This document shows positions 3,865 to 58,738 of a stretch of 64,000 nt of DNA, in pieces. Under the pieces are notes generated by a model. That model did not search any database. It was not told where the DNA came from and saw nothing but the letters and a program-made list of their open reading frames with translations. The first letter of the stretch is position 1; each line of letters opens with the position of its first letter. This stretch comes from an uncultured Gammaproteobacteria bacterium. Lineage in GTDB: Bacteria; Patescibacteriota; Patescibacteriia; Magasanikbacterales; UBA922. Position numbers and translations under genes: made by a program. The stretch is from the NCBI GenBank assembly GCA_964597575.1, contig CAZQXB010000001.1:64964-128963 (forward strand), in the 5' to 3' direction.

Positions 3865-6800
3865 TTACGAGCACCCGAGGGAGTCCCCGCAGTTCAAACA
3901 CTTATAGCAGGCGCCATTTCGAACGGTAATGTGTCCGCACGTTGGGCAGGCTGGCGCGTCACCATCCATTTCACTAAGCGCCTGGGCCATCGCATCTGGC
4001 ACATCCCCAGCCACCGCTCCTGAAGTAGCCTCATCAGCAACTTCGCTTTTCGCTTTTCCAGCCACAGCTGGTGCTATTTTTGGTAATTGAAGGGTTTCTT
4101 GCCCGGCAGTGTTTTCAGCCAAGTTCACTAAGTTTTCAAATTTGTTTTTTTGAATTCCTTTTGGAGGCACCTGTACAAAATCAGTGCGACCAAGGTACTC
4201 CATGCCAAGAACACGGAAGACAAAGTCGATAATGGAAGTACAGATTTTTACATTTGGGTGGTCAGTCATTCCGGCTGGCTCAAAACGAGTAAAGGTAAAG
4301 TTCTCTACATATTTTTCGAGCGGCACGCCGTACTGAAGACCCATAGAAACGGAAATCGCGAACATGTTCAACATACTGCGGAAGGCTGCACCTTCTTTAT
4401 ACATGTCAACGAAAATCTCAGCTAATTTTCCATCTGGATATTCACCGGTACGAAGCCAGATCTGCTGATTTCCAATTTTTGCTGAAACCGTAATACCACT
4501 GCGTTTCGCTGGAACTTTTCGTTTTTCCCCATGCACATAAACACGATGGTCAGTAATCGACCCATCTTTACTATAACTTGGTATGGCATGGGTATCTGGC
4601 ATGTGCTGGCCCAAAATTTTACTTGCGGCTAGAATTGCCTGGCTCAAATCTGCTTGTTTTACCACTTCAACTTCTTTCGCTACTGGTTTCTCAACCACCG
4701 CCTTCACCTCTTCTTTTATCTCTTCCTTCTTTACTTCTTTCTTTGAAGAAGTAGAGAGGGCTTGAGAAAGTTTACTTCCATCACGATACAATGCTACCGC
4801 TTTCAAACCAACGCGCCACGATTCTTCATAGGCAAATTTCACGTCTTCTACGGTCACATCATTTGGCATGTTGATGGTCTTTGAAATCGCGCCAGACAAA
4901 AATGGCTGGGCTGCGGCCATCATTCTTACATGTCCCAAGTAATGAATGTACCGAACGCCTTTCTTTCCACATTTGTTTGCGCAATCGAAAATAGGATAAT
5001 GTTCTGCTTTCAAATGAGGCGCACCTTCAATCGTCATGAGACCACACACAAAGTCATTCGCTCGATCAATTTCCTCATCAGAAAAACCAAGCGCTTTCAA
5101 CATGTGAAAGTTCGAATCATTATATTCCGTCGCACTGAAGCCAGCGCGCTTCATACACTCTTCACCAAGCGTCCACACATTAAAGGCAAAGCGGATTTCA
5201 AAGGCACCTTTCAAAGCTTTGTTCACCTTCTCAAGGTCTTCTGTGCTAAATCCTTTTGCTTTCAAACTTTCTGCATTAATGAATGGAGCATTCGTAATGT
5301 CGGCAGTCCCTTTCATGTAATCCATTACTTCCCCTACTTCGTTTTCTGCGTATCCAAGCTGGCGAAGTGCAGCTGGCACCGCTTCGTTCACAATCTTGAA
5401 GTAGCCTCCACCGGCGAGTTTTTTAAACTTCACCAAGGCAAAATCTGGTTCTACACCGGTCGTCGCACAGTCCATGAGAAGCCCAATCGTTCCGGTCGGA
5501 GCAAGAAGTGTGGTTTGAGCGTTGCGGTATCCGTATTTTTCTCCCCAAGCTACGGCTTCGTTCCAACTTTCTCGCGCAGCCGCGAGCAAATATGCCGGAG
5601 CATATTCTGGGTTAATACCAACAGGCATGATCGTAATTTTTTCGTATTCACTTTCTGGTGCATTGAATGCAGCGCGACGATGATTACGCATCACGCGAAG
5701 CATATCTTCACGATTCAAAGCGAATTTAGGGAATGGCCCGAGGAAGCTCGCGATTTCAGCGCTTGTTCGATACGACTCACCGGTCATTAGCGCGGTTACT
5801 GCACCCGTAAACGCGTACGCTTCTTCTGATTCATACGGAATACCGGCAGTCATAAGAACTGAACCAATATTCGCATACCCTAACCCGAGGGTGCGGTATT
5901 CATAACTCATCTGAGCAATTTCCTTACTTGGGTATTGCGCCATGAGGACACTAATTTCGAGTACTACGGTCCACAAACGAACACTGTGTTTAAAATCGTC
6001 AACCAAGAACTCCTGACGTTCCACATTATAATAGTGTGCCAAGTTGAGCGAGGCCAAGTTACACGCAGTGTTATCGAGGAACATGTATTCACTGCATGGG
6101 TTCGAACCATTGATCCGGCCTGATTGAGGGCAGGTGTGCCAATCGTTAATCGTACCATCATACTGCACCCCTGGGTCAGCACAGCGCCATGCAGCATATG
6201 CAATCGCATCCCAAATTTCTCGAGCTTTATGGGTGCGCGCAATAGTGCCGTCGGTTCTCCAGGTCAAATTCCAAGAAGCATCACGTTTTATCGCATCCAT
6301 GAAGGTGTGTGGTACACGTACGGAATTGTTCGAATTCTGACCAGACACGGTTTGGTATGCTTCCCCTTCGTAATCTGAGCCGTATCCTGCGGTAATCAAG
6401 GCGGCAACCTTCTTTTCTTCTTCTACTTTCCAGTTAATAAATTCCAAAATATCGGGGTGATCTGCATTCAAGATAACCATTTTTGCGGCACGGCGTGTCG
6501 TACCACCAGATTTAATTGCACCAGCTGCGCGGTCACCAATTTTAAGGAAACTCATGAGGCCGCTTGACATACCACCACCAGAAAGAGCTTCACCTCGTCC
6601 GCGAAGTCCAGAAAAGTTGGTACCCGTACCAGAGCCGTACTTAAACAACCGAGCTTCGCGCACCCATAGATCCATAATTCCGCCTTCACCTACTAAGTCA
6701 TCTCGAACCGACTGGATAAAACACGCGTGTGGTTGTGGGTGAGAGTAAGAATCTTTTGATTTGGTCAAAACACCAGAATCAGGATCAACATAATAGTGCC

Positions 6801-7371
6801 CTTGTGACGGACCATTAATGCCGTATGCCCAATGGAGCCCGGTATTAAACCACTGTGGTGAGTTCGGTGCGACACGCTGCGTGAGGAGCATGTACGCAAG
6901 CTCATCGTAAAACACTTGTGCATCTTCAGGAGTTGCAAAGTATCCATATCGCTCCCCCCAGTACCGCCAAGTTCCGACCAATCGATGCACCGTTTGTTTC
7001 ACGCTGGTTTCAGGTCCAAGCATGGGAGACCCGTCTGCGTTCTTTTTCGGTGATCCATCAGCATTAAATTGTGGCACCCCGGCTTTGCGAAAATATTTTT
7101 GTGCAACAATATCTGTCGCAACCTGTGACCATGTTTTCGGAATCTCAATTTCTTTCATTTCAAACACCACCGTACCATCCGGTTCACGAATAACTGAGGT
7201 GCGTAGATCATATTCGATCATGTCATACGGACTCACGCCTTGTTTGGTATACAAACGCTGACACTTAAGCCCATTCGGGTGATACGTAAAACGAGCCGAG
7301 GCATCGGCTCCGAGCTGAATGCTTTCAATAAAACGGGAATCAGTTGGCCCCATAGAATGAAGATAAGGCAT
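3865..7371 (-). CDS. nrdJ: adenosylcobalamin-dependent ribonucleoside-diphosphate/triphosphate reductase, class II (NrdJ), long form
   Basis: Collinear class II RNR pattern along the whole 1168-aa protein. C-terminal Cys cluster CPTCGHITVRNGACYKCLNCG typical of NrdJ. Internal Lys/Glu-rich linker. No intein motifs. Confidence 0.93.
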   Translation of the reverse strand: MPYLHSMGPTDSRFIESIQLGADASARFTYHPNGLKCQRLYTKQGVSPYDMIEYDLRTSVIREPDGTVVFEMKEIEIPKTWSQVATDIVAQKYFRKAGVPQFNADGSPKKNADGSPMLGPETSVKQTVHRLVGTWRYWGERYGYFATPEDAQVFYDELAYMLLTQRVAPNSPQWFNTGLHWAYGINGPSQGHYYVDPDSGVLTKSKDSYSHPQPHACFIQSVRDDLVGEGGIMDLWVREARLFKYGSGTGTNFSGLRGRGEALSGGGMSSGLMSFLKIGDRAAGAIKSGGTTRRAAKMVILNADHPDILEFINWKVEEEKKVAALITAGYGSDYEGEAYQTVSGQNSNNSVRVPHTFMDAIKRDASWNLTWRTDGTIARTHKAREIWDAIAYAAWRCADPGVQYDGTINDWHTCPQSGRINGSNPCSEYMFLDNTACNLASLNLAHYYNVERQEFLVDDFKHSVRLWTVVLEISVLMAQYPSKEIAQMSYEYRTLGLGYANIGSVLMTAGIPYESEEAYAFTGAVTALMTGESYRTSAEIASFLGPFPKFALNREDMLRVMRNHRRAAFNAPESEYEKITIMPVGINPEYAPAYLLAAARESWNEAVAWGEKYGYRNAQTTLLAPTGTIGLLMDCATTGVEPDFALVKFKKLAGGGYFKIVNEAVPAALRQLGYAENEVGEVMDYMKGTADITNAPFINAESLKAKGFSTEDLEKVNKALKGAFEIRFAFNVWTLGEECMKRAGFSATEYNDSNFHMLKALGFSDEEIDRANDFVCGLMTIEGAPHLKAEHYPIFDCANKCGKKGVRYIHYLGHVRMMAAAQPFLSGAISKTINMPNDVTVEDVKFAYEESWRVGLKAVALYRDGSKLSQALSTSSKKEVKKEEIKEEVKAVVEKPVAKEVEVVKQADLSQAILAASKILGQHMPDTHAIPSYSKDGSITDHRVYVHGEKRKVPAKRSGITVSAKIGNQQIWLRTGEYPDGKLAEIFVDMYKEGAAFRSMLNMFAISVSMGLQYGVPLEKYVENFTFTRFEPAGMTDHPNVKICTSIIDFVFRVLGMEYLGRTDFVQVPPKGIQKNKFENLVNLAENTAGQETLQLPKIAPAVAGKAKSEVADEATSGAVAGDVPDAMAQALSEMDGDAPACPTCGHITVRNGACYKCLNCGDSLGCS

Positions 7372-13821: not shown

Positions 13822-13856
13822 AAATAAACATCCGTACGGATGTTTATTTTATTTTG
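13822..13856 (+). terminator. rho-independent terminator after tRNA-Leu
   Basis: Hairpin AAACATCCG-tac-CGGATGTTT followed by TATTTTATTTT. Confidence 0.6.
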
Positions 13857-13867
13857 TACTGCCTAAA

Positions 13868-14001
13868 GGGACTCGAACCGAAAGGGTTTGGGAAAACTGT
13901 TTGGCGGTTTTCCCACCTCGTGCAGGGGGATGGTTGGGAAGGGGTGGAAACCTCTTCCCAAGAGGAGTGGGGCGACGAGTGAGATGTCCCCGCCCGCGGC
14001 A
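13868..14001 (+). repeat. tRNA-trailer structured element E1: inverted T-arm copy, two hairpins, direct copy of the tRNA-Leu 3' end
   Basis: Starts GGGACTCGAACC, the reverse complement of the tRNA-Leu T-arm GGTTCGAGTCCC. Ends GTCCCCGCCCGCGGCA, a copy of the tRNA 3' end. Internal hairpins GGGAAAAC..GTTTTCCC and GGAAGGGG-tggaaa-CCTCTTCC (with a G.U). Followed by its own terminator at 14004-14044. Confidence 0.5.
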
Positions 14002-14098
14002 CGAATAAAAATAACTCCTACATGTAGGGGTTATTTTTATTCGTGCAGAATGTGGGACGAAGTTAGAGTTTTCATTTTAGAATTAGACTAGCAGTCTA

Positions 14099-23151: not shown

Positions 23152-23994
23152 CTATCTCACCACCCGCGAAAGCAAAGCCGGGAAAATTGGGATCCCCGAC
23201 CGCAGGCAGTTATACCGGAAAACAGCCTCGTTCACGTACCACTGGAGCCACTTCCCGGAAATCCAATGGTGGCACCGGTAAAGCTTCTTAAGCTGAGACC
23301 AAAATCCCTCAATACCATTCGTAGATACGTTCCCCCGAACGTATTCTCTTTTACTGTGGCATACTGAAAAATGGTTATATCGCCTACCTAAGTCATCATA
23401 TGAATGGCTTTCATCGGTCATAACATCGGACGCCCAATCAATAACCGAAAAGATATACTTCGATAAGGTAAGTTTCTGAATGTCCCGCACCACCACAGCA
23501 AACACCTTTCCCTCTCGTTTCAGAATCCCGAACACAGGGATTTTGTTTTTTCTCCAGCCACACCCACCTGCTCTGCGGGTTTTCCCTCCAATAAACGTTT
23601 CATCCGCCTCAAACACCCCTTCTGATTTCTCCATATCCTGCTCCATAAGCTCACGAATCTTGTGACCCATACGCCAGGCGGTCTTATAAGTTACCCCTAA
23701 CACCCTCTGCAACTCCTTTGCCGGGACACCCCGGCGCGTTTGTGAGAATAGGTATATACTAAGAAACCACAGTTTTAGGGATGTAGAGGACTTATTGAAA
23801 ATCGTGTCGGAGAGTGGATCTATCTGGTAGCCACAAGCACAGGCATAGGTCTTACGACCCTCTACCCTATAGAACTTGTTCTTGAGACACTTTGGACAGA
23901 GGTGACCTTCCCCATATTTATACTTAAAAACGTACTCTAGGCAGGCATCATCGTCCGGAAATTGTTTATTAAATTGAGAGATAGAATACTTCAT
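23152..23994 (-). CDS. IS1595-family (ISXO2-like) transposase
   Basis: N-terminal transposase zinc ribbon (HLCPKC...CACGYQ) and the DDE_Tnp_IS1595 domain. C-terminal ...WYVNEAVFRYN motif typical of the family. Confidence 0.9.
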   Translation of the reverse strand: MKYSISQFNKQFPDDDACLEYVFKYKYGEGHLCPKCLKNKFYRVEGRKTYACACGYQIDPLSDTIFNKSSTSLKLWFLSIYLFSQTRRGVPAKELQRVLGVTYKTAWRMGHKIRELMEQDMEKSEGVFEADETFIGGKTRRAGGCGWRKNKIPVFGILKREGKVFAVVVRDIQKLTLSKYIFSVIDWASDVMTDESHSYDDLGRRYNHFSVCHSKREYVRGNVSTNGIEGFWSQLKKLYRCHHWISGKWLQWYVNEAVFRYNCLRSGIPIFPALLSRVVR

Positions 23995-24412: not shown

Positions 24413-24804
24413 TGAGTTATTCACAGGCTAAAAAAGTTATTCACTCACATGTGGACAAATCTGTGCATAAAATACACCGACAATAAGTACTACAAAGTAG
24501 GCTGTTTCATGTGAAACACTCCATGAGGGGAATCTCGGAAAAAGACTCATACGCAATCTGCTATCTCTTTTAGAGATTAGGGTGAGAGTATGTACTTAGT
24601 GGAAAACCAAAGTCAGTGTTCAATTCTGCTTTACCCAAAAATCATTATCTACACTGCCGCCCCAAGGATAAACTGTATAGGCGTAGTGTCCATCTTTAGA
24701 AAGCCGAAAAAATGCAAAGTACGCTACAAATCTAAAAACCAAAAAAACCTCACACCGGGGCACGGGCAGGTAGTGTTCCAAGCAAAAGAAAACGATGTAC
24801 AGTG

Positions 24805-24876
24805 TGGCCTCACCACGAATCGAACGTGGATTTAGACGTTAGGAGTGTCTCGTTCTATCCATTGAACTATGGGGCC
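24805..24876 (-). tRNA. tRNA-Arg (anticodon CCT), with C5-A68 and A31-C39 mismatches
   Basis: Minus-strand cloverleaf GGCCCCA...TGAGGCCA. Anticodon loop CTCCTAA. T-arm CCACGTTCGATTCGTGG. Two stem mismatches, so possibly a degenerating copy. Confidence 0.55.
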
Positions 24877-41357: not shown

Positions 41358-41406
41358 TAAAATAAGTACTCTCCCTTGTGGGGAGTATTTATTTTATTCG
41401 TGTTAC

Positions 41407-41541
41407 GGCCAGGATTGAACTAAGGGAAAGTTTGAAAACCGATAGGTTTTCACTTCTGCTAGGGGAAGGTTAGGAAGGGGTGGAAACCCCTTCCTAAGAG
41501 TCTGAATTTTATTCAGAGGAGTGAAATCCTGGCCCGCGGCA
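41407..41541 (+). repeat. tRNA-trailer structured element E2 (tRNA-Phe): inverted T-arm copy, two hairpins, direct 3'-end copy
   Basis: Starts GGCCAGGATTGAACT, the exact reverse complement of tRNA-Phe AGTTCAATCCTGGCC. Ends ATCCTGGCCCGCGGCA, a copy of the tRNA 3' end. Hairpins GAAAACC-gata-GGTTTTC and GGAAGGGG-tggaaa-CCCCTTCC. Own terminator at 41545-41578. Confidence 0.5.
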
Positions 41542-41616
41542 CTGACAAACAAGACTGTTACGGTCTTGTTTTGTTTTACGGAAAAGAAGCTTGTAAACAG
41601 AAAGGGGGCTTGCCCC

Positions 41617-41645
41617 TTGAAATAAATTTGGATATCATATATACT
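41617..41645 (+). promoter_or_regulatory. tRNA-Pro promoter TTGAAA-N17-TATACT
   Basis: Hexamers with 17-nt spacer about 15 nt upstream of tRNA-Pro. Confidence 0.45.
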
Positions 41646-41660
41646 CCCTGCAGTAAAAAA

Positions 41661-41734
41661 CGGGCTGTGGCTCAATTGGCTAGAGTGCCTGGTTTGGGAC
41701 CAGGAGGTTGTGGGTTCAAGTCCCACCAGCCCGA
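41661..41734 (+). tRNA. tRNA-Pro (anticodon TGG)
   Basis: C1-G72 first pair (CGGGCTG/CAGCCCG) typical of bacterial tRNA-Pro. Anticodon loop TTTGGGA with G37. T-arm GTGGGTTCAAGTCCCAC. Confidence 0.85.
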
Positions 41735-41790
41735 CACAATAAATAAGTCCTTCTTAACCGAGAGGGACTTATTTATTTTTTTTGGATTGA

Positions 41791-41901
41791 GGACTTGAAC
41801 CCAGAAGGGGGTCGGGGAAACAGTTGCTTCCCCGTGGCGGATTCTTGAAACCGAGGGGTTTCAAAAGGAGCGAAGCGACGTGTGAAAGTCCCCAGCCCGA
41901 C
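41791..41901 (+). repeat. tRNA-trailer structured element E3 (tRNA-Pro, proximal copy)
   Basis: Starts GGACTTGAACCC (reverse complement of the tRNA-Pro T-arm). 66-nt core 41801-41866 matches 54048-54113 with only 2 mismatches. Ends AGTCCCCAGCCCGAC (copy of the tRNA 3' end). Own terminator at 41908-41940. Confidence 0.5.
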
Positions 41902-41979
41902 TAACATAAAACTTCTCTTGCGAGAAGTTTTATATTTTATTTGGAGAGCCGAGCGACCTAATAGTTTAGGTCTCGAGTA

Positions 41980-42098
41980 GGACTTGAACGCCGGAGCGAT
42001 GTTTTGCGAACACGTTGGTGAGCAAAACCACGAGGCGATGGCCAGCCCGAGGAGGAGGAAACCGACAGGGGCAAGACCAAGGACCACAGAGCCCGACA
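41980..42098 (+). repeat. tRNA-trailer structured element E4 (tRNA-Pro, distal copy)
   Basis: Starts GGACTTGAACG. Internal hairpin GTTTTGC..GCAAAAC. Ends CAGAGCCCGACA followed by AGATAAATAAGTCCTTCT, matching the tRNA-Pro 3' end plus the 5' half of its terminator. Confidence 0.45.
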
Positions 42099-42318
42099 AG
42101 ATAAATAAGTCCTTCTCATTGAGGAGGAGGCTTATTTATCTTGTTGAATTGAGAGCTTTGAATCGGAATAAGGAGGGCGAAATAGTTGTTTGGTTTTAAA
42201 CTCTTACAAAAGGGAAATTCTTGCCGGACATGTCTGTGATTTATCTATCCACATCTTCGTTGGAAAAGGCATACTTATGAAGTACACTAAATAAAAGTTC
42301 ATTTTAGCATTCGTTTCT

Positions 42319-53857: not shown

Positions 53858-53886
53858 TTGAAAAAAAGGGCGGTGCGTGTTATGCT
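53858..53886 (+). promoter_or_regulatory. tRNA-Cys promoter TTGAAA-N17-TATGCT
   Basis: Hexamers with 17-nt spacer 22 nt upstream of tRNA-Cys. Confidence 0.4.
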
Positions 53887-53908: not shown

Positions 53909-53980
<72 letters not shown>

Positions 53981-54035
53981 CAAATATAAAATACTACCTC
54001 TAGAGGTAGTATTTTATTATTGGTTTGGTTTCGAT

Positions 54036-54159
54036 GTGGGAATTGAACCAGAAGGGGGTCGGGGAAACAGTTGTTTCCCCGTGGCGGATTATTGAAACCG
54101 AGGGGTTTCAAAACGCAGCGAACGAAGTGGGCGAGTAGTGAAATTACCCACCCGTACCT
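54036..54159 (+). repeat. tRNA-trailer structured element E5 (tRNA-Cys); core near-identical to E3
   Basis: Starts GTGGGAATTGAACC, the exact reverse complement of tRNA-Cys GGTTCAATTCCCAC. Core 54048-54113 matches 41801-41866. Ends AATTACCCACCCGTACCT, then CAAATATAAAA and a new hairpin, mirroring the tRNA-Cys 3' flank. Confidence 0.5.
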
Positions 54160-54211
54160 CAAATATAAAAGAGAGCTTCAAGCTCTCTTTTATATTTGGT
54201 CTCGAGGGTCG

Positions 54212-58689: not shown

Positions 58690-58735
58690 GAAGCCAAAAT
58701 ATAAAATATCACCCCTGAAGGGCGATATTTTATAT
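58690..58735 (-). terminator. terminator downstream of tRNA-Gly(TCC)
   Basis: Hairpin ATATCACCCC-tgaa-GGGCGATAT flanked by A/T runs. Confidence 0.45.
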
Positions 58736-58738
58736 TTG

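Follow-up and report, generated by a model that had tools for sequence, protein, structure and literature searches.

An apparently undescribed family of structured elements behind tRNA genes of Patescibacteria, with arms copied from the neighbouring tRNA

Much of bacterial diversity belongs to the Patescibacteria, whose genomes are very small. One related system is that of the group I introns found in their tRNA genes, which are Patescibacteria-enriched structured RNAs, mostly without a homing endonuclease gene (PMC13011429). Here we describe short, gene-less elements that follow tRNA genes, starting from a 64,000-nt stretch of DNA (the window) in contig CAZQXB010000001.1 (assembly GCA_964597575.1, positions 64,964 to 128,963 of the forward strand), which GTDB places in the Magasanikbacterales; homologues of its PolA and antiporter likewise put this genome of ~914 kb near Magasanikbacteria. 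Each element consists of a conserved, folded core between two arms that repeat the 3' end of the tRNA gene just upstream, the left arm inverted and the right arm direct. These elements are, like the introns, structured, Patescibacteria-enriched and physically tied to tRNA genes, whereas the introns interrupt the anticodon loop and have a catalytic core (PMC13011429) and the elements lie outside intact tRNAs and match no intron in Rfam. A full-text literature search of incomplete coverage returned no description of them, the paper on the introns being the only related one, and the family is apparently a new and undescribed kind of element.

Other small or tRNA-associated sequences share parts of this anatomy. 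Genomic islands integrated at tRNA genes and cis-mobilizable elements (CIMEs) likewise have direct repeats of a tRNA 3' end, tandem arrays, presence/absence polymorphism and no mobility gene of their own; unlike in these, the native 3' end and terminator are here proximal, both arms are copied from the upstream tRNA, and one core type, conserved and folded in a unit of ~150 nt, serves more than 14 tRNA species. Miniature inverted-repeat transposable elements (MITEs) and repeats resembling repetitive extragenic palindromes (Correia, RUP, BOX, ERIC, REP/BIME) are likewise small, gene-less, multi-copy and intergenic, carry terminal inverted repeats, and are often co-transcribed and hairpin-forming. 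Their inverted repeats, however, are element-specific and the same at all sites, with short target duplications of fixed length, whereas here the inverted repeat is local target sequence that differs from locus to locus, and every examined copy directly follows either a tRNA gene or, in tandem arrays, another element.

Integron attC sites and the CTX-phi attP(+) are imperfect hairpins of one strand, can likewise occur as gene-less tandem units and use an enzyme supplied in trans; unlike them, the present elements have arms made of a tRNA 3' end, lie beyond the tRNA's own terminator and show no R''/R' boxes, no dif-like site and, within the window, no integron integrase. The attC consensus is RYYYAAC (R'') and GTTRRRY (R'), and dif carries XerC/D half-sites; by inspection the arm ends found here (TTCGAAC / GTTCGAA or TTGAAC / GTGAAA) fit neither, and the strand asymmetry that is present is equally compatible with RNA. 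Among tRNA-like signals, plant mitochondrial t-elements, MALAT1 mascRNA and bacterial RNAs derived from tRNA 3' external transcribed spacers (3'ETS), such as 3'ETS-leuZ, arise from sequence that flanks or mimics tRNAs and work through an acceptor-like helix and tRNA-processing enzymes, or as sponges. They keep a T-loop/elbow or have no tRNA mimicry, and to our knowledge none is a multi-copy family in which the closing helix of each copy is templated anew on the tRNA next to it.

The initial annotation of the window pointed to a near-identical 66-nt core behind tRNA-Pro and tRNA-Cys with two differences, and blastn agrees (41801-41866 vs 54048-54113, 64/66 identical); two exact copies of the 36-nt centre of this core are present in the window (41808-41843 and 54055-54090), where 100 shuffles lead one to expect none. 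Mobility or gene conversion had been read from this near-identity, but the Cys core and the core of the first Pro element (Pro1), 97% identical to one another, are equally close or closer to copies in other genomes (98.4% and 97.5%, respectively, to L014/L019; handles of this form denote loci outside the window), so that the likeness reflects conservation of a family and is no special sign of recent movement.

The arms are described below by X1 (the tRNA from T-loop to 3' end), X' (the inverted left arm) and X2 (the direct right arm), and coordinates are collected in Table 1. An exact, tRNA-specific inverted copy had been proposed for the left flank at both loci; it is exact at tRNA-Cys, where 54036-54049 reverse-complements T-loop and T-stem 3' strand without a mismatch (53959-53972, 14/14), and 94% over 16 nt at tRNA-Pro (41708-41723 vs 41791-41806). 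On the right the proposed duplication of the tRNA-Cys 3' end is present as a 24/24 direct repeat, CCCACCCGTACCTCAAATATAAAA (53968-53991 vs 54147-54170, spacing 179), but the exact repeat begins at the T-stem 3' strand, and the proposed start inside the T-loop is reached only by tolerating a substitution of 2 nt (TC to GA) and an insertion of 1 nt. Cys X2 accordingly opens with an altered T-loop, in which GA stands in place of U55C56 and an A is inserted; the 3' strands of T-stem and acceptor and the discriminator follow unchanged. Paired with X', this arm forms a closing helix, P1, that contains a tandem G.A mismatch, and the anti-acceptor GGTTTGG pairs with CCGTACC in six of seven positions, including G:U on the + strand. 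Direct repeats elsewhere comprise an 18-nt exact core inside a 34-nt repeat at 79% (Phe) and 10 nt (Pro), the repeats flank a unit of 166-190 nt, and X1, the first terminator and X' together form a single long imperfect palindrome. The units are indeed discrete and gene-less, as had been noted, measuring ~120-190 nt and tied to tRNA 3' ends.

The first 15 trailer bases, CTCAAATATAAAATA, are common to the unrelated tRNA-Cys (53981-53995) and tRNA-Gly-TCC (58723-58737, minus strand), so part of what appears as flank in the 24-nt repeat is a recurrent terminator motif of this genome; the terminators of the two genes are of the same design, with long A/U-rich outer stems. A Logan contig from a short-read assembly of the same organism (SRR13355620_17161; L001) ends at window position ~53988, inside the tRNA-Cys direct repeat.

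All units follow one order: tRNA, terminator hairpin, left arm X', core, right arm X2 and second terminator. X' reverse-complements the T-loop and the 3' strand of the T-stem and continues into a degenerate anti-acceptor; the core has two or three hairpins connected by purine-rich strands; X2 repeats, in direct orientation, the stretch from the T-loop over the 3' strands of T-stem and acceptor to the discriminator or CCA, followed by a few bases of trailer. At least three core types exist (A, B and C), A and C being homologous by alignment. The window holds five elements, with a C core behind tRNA-Leu and tRNA-Phe, an A1 core in Pro1 and behind tRNA-Cys, and a B core in the second Pro element (Pro2); the Leu core has the hairpin TTRGGAAGGGGTGGAAACCYCTTCCYAA in common with that of Phe, and the B core was seen again in L007. 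No element follows the window's tRNA-Arg(CCT), tRNA-Gly(GCC) or tRNA-Gly(TCC), or the operon-internal tRNA-Ala and tRNA-Met. Of the tRNA transcription units seen here, roughly half have one or two modules.

A 19-mer of the A core, scanned against one GTDB genome per species, was found in 12 places, ten real and two chance matches in coding DNA, and a 24-mer scanned against metagenome contigs was found in seven. The GTDB records are mostly titled Patescibacteria (Saccharibacteria, Berkelbacteria, "Patescibacteria group"), the remainder being unclassified or mislabelled metagenome-assembled genomes (MAGs); Saccharibacteria with A-type elements include the MAGs of L002 and L005. At all loci except L012 and L017, which have no adjacent tRNA called by ARAGORN, the A core lies 40-100 nt 3' of a tRNA on the same strand, and outside the window these tRNAs are Glu, Thr, Ala-GGC, Ala-CGC, Phe, Ser-GGA, Ser-TGA, Arg-GCG, Asp, Gln-TTG and Gln-CTG. 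Left and right arms are both specific to each of the more than 14 tRNA species, every unit closing with the 3' end of its own upstream tRNA, with CCA if the gene has one. Across Patescibacteria classes the A core shows no variation in its first 31-34 nt, GAAGGGGGTCGGGGAAACAGTTGTTTCCCCG; its 3' half falls into sub-variants A1 to A4, which tend to uniformity within one genome. Direct repeats range from 10 to 45 nt across copies, and none of ~25 copies has a gene inserted. Loci L013 and L018 carry an identical tRNA-Gln with an A3 element and diverge completely ~10 nt past the right arm, which is a rearrangement or recombination breakpoint at the distal edge of the element.

Selection acts on the single-stranded structure of the + strand. 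The tRNA-sense strand folds more stably than its complement in 16 of 19 elements, with a mean gain of 5.5 kcal/mol (Wilcoxon p = 2e-4), and P1 holds 28 G:U pairs against five A.C mismatches. In L007, C-to-T changes have made the right arm differ from the tRNA while its pairing with the left arm is kept, and in many lineages the right arm reads GUGA in place of the tRNA's GUUC, which opposite GA of the left arm gives a tandem G.A mismatch. The GAAAC/GUUUC hairpin covaries at its base (U:A, G:C, C:G). In the orthologous Phe elements of the window and L031, hairpin P3 has changed on both sides at five of 11 pairs and is still paired at all 11. Predicted folds consist of a long P1 closing a three- or four-way junction (four-way in C-type elements) with several GNRA-type loops, and fold z-scores are -6.65 for the Phe element and -3.16 for the Leu element. 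On its 3' side the closing helix consists of the tRNA's own sequence, from the T-stem 3' strand through that of the acceptor to the discriminator, plus CCA where encoded. RNA, a putative transcript made by read-through, is the simplest reading of the structured strand, because the units sit within tRNA transcription units and in two of them (L003 and L010) no terminator separates the element from the tRNA.

Turnover was followed at two orthologous loci, polA-tRNA-Cys and antiporter-tRNA-Ala-Phe-Pro-response-regulator, in relatives of 76-83% identity at the protein level. The zinc-finger protein next to the Cys element was rejected as a marker of synteny (homologues at most 57% identical, in unrelated contexts), and PolA and the Na/H antiporter served instead. 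Presence/absence polymorphism was found at the Cys site: L027 (PolA 83% identical to that of the window) is element-free, with a single terminator and then efp after tRNA-Cys; L028 (PolA 80%) has a C-type element whose arms fit its own tRNA variant (T-stem GTGAG/CTCAC); and the window has an A1 element. L031 (antiporter 76% identical) shares the C-type element after tRNA-Phe with the window, and at the tRNA-Pro site it has one C-type element where the window has A1 followed by B. These comparisons point to gain, loss or replacement within ~20% protein divergence, and to retention of at least one element under structural constraint. L031 (CAZYEQ010000030.1) and L009 (CAZYEQ010000033.1) come from a MAG titled "uncultured Gammaproteobacteria bacterium SRP219642_co4_14", which bears elements and the locus syntenic with the window; at least these two contigs belong to a Magasanikbacteria-like Patescibacterium, so the MAG label or binning looks wrong.

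The terminators show which 3' end is the older one. The terminator right after tRNA-Pro is 88% identical between the window and L031, though the elements behind it differ, and all other terminator pairs are 51-76% identical, so the proximal 3' end and terminator are native and the element lies distal to them. Distal terminators look like diverged copies of the native local one (69-76%). By analogy with the Pro locus, terminator 1 at tRNA-Cys is probably native as well; in alignments of the single L027 terminator with the two of L028 the scores are close together (17 vs 15.5). In L017 and L003 the direct repeat is 38-45 nt long and extends through trailer and terminator, which fits a local duplication of tRNA 3' end, trailer and terminator at the birth of a copy. 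Behind tRNA genes without an encoded CCA the right arm runs on into trailer sequence and not into CCA, which indicates that the template was the gene or its primary transcript and not the mature tRNA.

To account for these features we tentatively favour a Patescibacteria-wide structured element of ~120-160 nt templated on tRNA genes, which would be made as trailer RNA, act as a tRNA mimic and turn over by template switching or gene conversion. The module would be transcribed by read-through from the tRNA promoter and fold as a cloverleaf-like junction, and at its tRNA-like end RNase P, RNase Z or exonucleases and the CCA-adding enzyme would release a discrete small RNA, a mimic or decoy of the acceptor/T arm of the neighbouring tRNA. 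New copies and core swaps would need no dedicated recombinase and would go through the near-universal T-loop sequence at both core boundaries, where its complement stands on the left and the T-loop itself on the right. A nascent strand may fold back at the terminator hairpin and reverse-copy the trailer and tRNA 3' end, giving X' and stopping in the T-arm; it may then jump through T-loop homology to an existing element, whose core is copied, and return by the same homology to the local tRNA, where 3' end, trailer and terminator would be copied again as X2 and terminator 2. Such a three-switch copy-choice would yield every junction feature with no dedicated enzyme and is plausible but unproven. 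Gene conversion on the same short T-loop homologies could swap cores between occupied sites, and deletion between direct repeats could remove copies.

Several points weigh against this explanation. A good intrinsic terminator precedes most copies and they have no promoter of their own, so that expression would depend on read-through; between 53800 and 54300 no promoter-like site other than that of tRNA-Cys was found, and none lies ahead of the Cys element. The G:T wobbles, the tandem G.A and the GCGAAGC mini-hairpin are also stable as single-stranded DNA, and strand asymmetry alone therefore cannot tell RNA from single-stranded DNA. Templated (quasi-palindrome) mutation, too, yields compensatory changes in palindromes, and covariation was judged per hairpin and together with strand asymmetry, the MAFFT alignments of A2, A3 and A4 being out of structural register. 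An origin by template switching is inferred from junction anatomy only. As to mimicry, the closing helix does end in an acceptor-like manner, in the discriminator (and CCA), but it is unlike a faithful acceptor/T minihelix: it runs to 12-20 bp with bulges, the T-loop is paired or changed (U55C56 to GA), the T-loop/elbow and the 7+5 bp acceptor/T stack are missing, the anti-acceptor is degenerate in many copies, and neither ARAGORN nor the Rfam tRNA and tmRNA models call it. A bolder form of the explanation, which we regard as doubtful, would make the elements protein-free, self-propagating RNA genes templated on tRNAs, encoding cloverleaf-like small RNAs that hold the genuine 3' strand of the neighbouring tRNA's acceptor/T arm, are matured by tRNA-processing enzymes and mimic that particular tRNA, and spreading by T-loop template switching. 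The mimic might then, for example, decoy or sense whatever acts on tRNA 3' ends (enzymes, toxins or fragments) or even be a chargeable minihelix, and the elements would have spread among tRNA loci and Patescibacteria lineages with neither transposase nor integrase.

The initial annotation had instead seen site-specific integration into tRNA genes, and we think it unlikely that the elements are non-autonomous integrative DNA that a recombinase of the host or of a helper moves in trans, acting at the tRNA 3' end. The route might be a folded single strand, the X-terminator-X' hairpin mimicking a double-stranded target, with the CTX-phi attP for XerCD and attC for integron integrases as parallels, and Campbell-type insertion would leave direct repeats and tandem arrays. 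Direct repeats of the tRNA 3' end do bound the 166-190-nt unit, tandem units occur at tRNA-Pro, L002 and L007, and orthologous sites are polymorphic in the presence and type of element; the long imperfect palindrome of X1, terminator 1 and X' suits this route, as does the strand asymmetry if it reflects single-stranded DNA, and elements that move horizontally typically combine an extremely conserved core with a patchy presence. A crossover within the tRNA, however, predicts that the native end is distal, and the opposite is seen at tRNA-Pro, where the orthologous terminator (88%) is the proximal one; the element has thus not recombined into the tRNA gene. Nor can a fixed attP for one tRNA explain arms specific to more than 14 tRNA species: the A core stands behind Pro, Cys, Glu, Thr, Ala (two), Phe, Ser (two), Arg, Asp and Gln (two) with arms that fit each, and every retargeting would require two coordinated arm replacements. 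The GNRA-type loops and the compensatory changes in hairpins have no obvious role in recombination, and the absence of attC consensus boxes and of any gene-interrupted copy also speaks against integration.

Pfam matches among the 50 longest non-overlapping open reading frames (ORFs) of the window include no integrase (Phage_integrase), resolvase, reverse transcriptase, TnpB or IscB. The cores have no match in IMG/VR (four pattern scans) or in phage and plasmid collections (blastn), and a phage or plasmid origin was rejected on these empty scans. A MITE was set aside on arms that differ per locus, with neither identical, element-specific terminal inverted repeats nor a fixed short duplication. 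A palindrome-associated element of the IS200/IS605 kind or a TnpB/IscB relic fits poorly with the long direct repeats, the lack of a TnpA, TnpB or IscB partner in the window and the lack of an Rfam match. Diversity-generating retroelements, retrons and group II introns were rejected, the window having no reverse transcriptase and the repeat differences not being adenine-specific. The only recognisable mobility gene in the 64 kb is an IS1595-family DDE transposase (DDE_Tnp_IS1595 and zinc ribbon; 23152-23994, minus strand), which neighbours tRNA-Arg(CCT) at 24804-24876, a tRNA gene with no trailer element.

Improbable in our view is a functional RNA in which X' is the active part, an antisense guide or sponge for the T-arm and 3' region of the cognate tRNA, for pre-tRNA or for 3' tRNA fragments, with the mismatched right arm as a built-in lid that a perfectly matching target displaces. 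X' is a near-perfect complement of the tRNA at most loci (Cys 14/14, Phe 15/15, Leu 12/12, L028 13/13, L031-Pro 16/17, L007 16/16), which makes antisense or sponge action by the left arm a serious rival of the mimic role. The right arm, itself equivalent to a 3' tRNA fragment from T-loop to 3' end, carries systematic mismatches and bulges (UC to GA, small insertions). Turning a UC/GA Watson-Crick step into a tandem G.A can, however, be done only by altering the right arm, which may make the asymmetry a structural one; many copies have a degenerate anti-acceptor in the left arm, a folded and modified tRNA is a poor antisense target, and palindrome correction at the DNA level can also keep X1 and X' perfectly complementary. 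Passive origins are very improbable, whether as functionless by-products of replication or repair errors at tRNA ends, which are highly transcribed and hairpin-rich, or as old integration scars: everything flanking the core is a copy of local sequence, loss and gain are frequent and no associated gene was found, but neutral debris does not account for 31-34 nt of A core invariant over Saccharibacteria, Berkelbacteria and Magasanikbacteria-like genomes, for an orthologous copy kept with five compensatory pairs, for three core types of the same architecture or for the setting in streamlined genomes of ~0.9 Mb.

The favoured structured RNA matches no family known to us. In Rfam 15, scanned with gathering and permissive thresholds for the Cys, Phe/Pro and L005 elements, whose families include ribozymes, tmRNA, Y RNA, omega RNA/HEARO and group I introns, only tRNAs pass threshold, and the best other scores are at chance level (Hairpin-meta1 14.6 bits vs a threshold of 40; tmRNA_permuted 12-15 vs 47). 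In a comparison by eye, neither hammerhead, hairpin, twister, pistol and hepatitis delta virus-like cores nor RNase P, signal recognition particle RNA, tmRNA, C/D-box and K-turn motifs fit. A tRNA concealed in the minus strand, or one whose T-loop holds an intron, was rejected as the stems fail to form and ARAGORN is silent, and a small ORF was rejected as the Shine-Dalgarno-like GGAGGAAGG and AUG of some A2 copies are not kept in others.

Modules at about half of the tRNA units of small genomes point either to an unrecognised layer of tRNA biology or to a new means by which selfish DNA or RNA persists while coding for nothing. Ends that are rewritten for each target place the elements outside the current categories of integrative element, MITE, integron cassette and intron, and the explanation favoured here, if true, would provide a concrete system for the spread of structured RNAs by template switching. 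On the practical side, the elements fragment assemblies at tRNA loci, generate spurious ORFs and could pass for att sites of genomic islands.

Table 1. Positions in the window of the elements, their parts and the associated tRNA features.
Feature	Position	Strand	Description
Sigma-70-like promoter of tRNA-Cys	53858..53886	+	TTGAAA-17-TATGCT, TG extended
tRNA-Cys(GCA), intact	53909..53981	+	T-loop to 3' end (X1) is the template of both element arms
Cys terminator 1	53981..54022	+	A/U-rich hairpin and U-tract right after the discriminator base
Cys left arm X'	54012..54049	+	54036-54049 perfect complement; 54012-54035 degenerate anti-acceptor
Cys A1-type core, 66 nt	54048..54113	+	In common with 41801-41866
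Cys core parts		+	Purine-rich junction AGAAGGGGGTC; hairpin P2 54060-54081; junction GTGGCGGATTA; hairpin P3 54092-54111
Cys core 3' junction segment ACGCAGCGAACGAAGTGGGCGAGTA	54114..54137	+	Counterpart of the GGAGCGAAGCGACG mini-hairpin (P4) in other copies
Cys right arm X2	54138..54161	+	GTGAAATTA + CCCACCCGTACCTCA
Cys terminator 2, the element's own	54160..54198	+	Outer stem CAAATATAAAA / TTTTATATTTG matches terminator 1; inner stem different
tRNA-Pro(TGG)	41661-41735	+	
Pro1 element	41785..41936	+	Left arm 41791-41806; A1 core 41801-41866; right arm GTGAAAGTCCCCAGCCCGAC, end 41901; own terminator 41903-41936
Pro2 element, tandem to Pro1	41970..42144	+	Left arm 41977-41989; B-type core GAACGCCGGAGCG...CACGAGGCG; right arm ...CACAGAGCCCGACA; terminator 75% identical to the native tRNA-Pro terminator
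Phe element	41400..41571	+	Left arm 41407-41421, 15/15 complement of tRNA-Phe; C-type core; right arm 41520-41543; terminator 41547-41571; orthologous copy in L031
Leu element	13855..14046	+	Left arm 13868-13879; right arm 13977-14002; own terminator

The region is core chromosome, with dnaA, dnaN, holA, polA, efp and a penicillin-binding protein gene, and the position of dnaA and dnaN at 46.7-49.5 kb suggests a replication origin nearby. The four element-bearing loci (Leu; Phe and Pro in the Ala-Phe-Pro cluster; Cys) all lie on the + strand, and the three operon-terminal tRNAs with no element (Arg-CCT, Gly-GCC and Gly-TCC) all lie on the - strand, an arrangement that with seven loci could be due to chance (1 in 35). 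Just past the Leu terminator, GTGGGACGAAGTT at 14047-14075 resembles a left arm and junction (GGGAC...CGAAAG) and may be the remnant of a further, deleted unit. Two minus-strand ORFs of 107 and 108 aa (41403-41726 and 41773-42099) run antisense over the Phe, Pro1 and Pro2 elements and the tRNA-Pro gene and are almost certainly artefacts of G-rich repeats and not genes. A class II ribonucleotide reductase of 1168 aa (3865-7371, minus strand) has its barrel domain matched in two stretches and a C-terminal TSCPD domain, and its extra length may be due to an insertion such as an intein.

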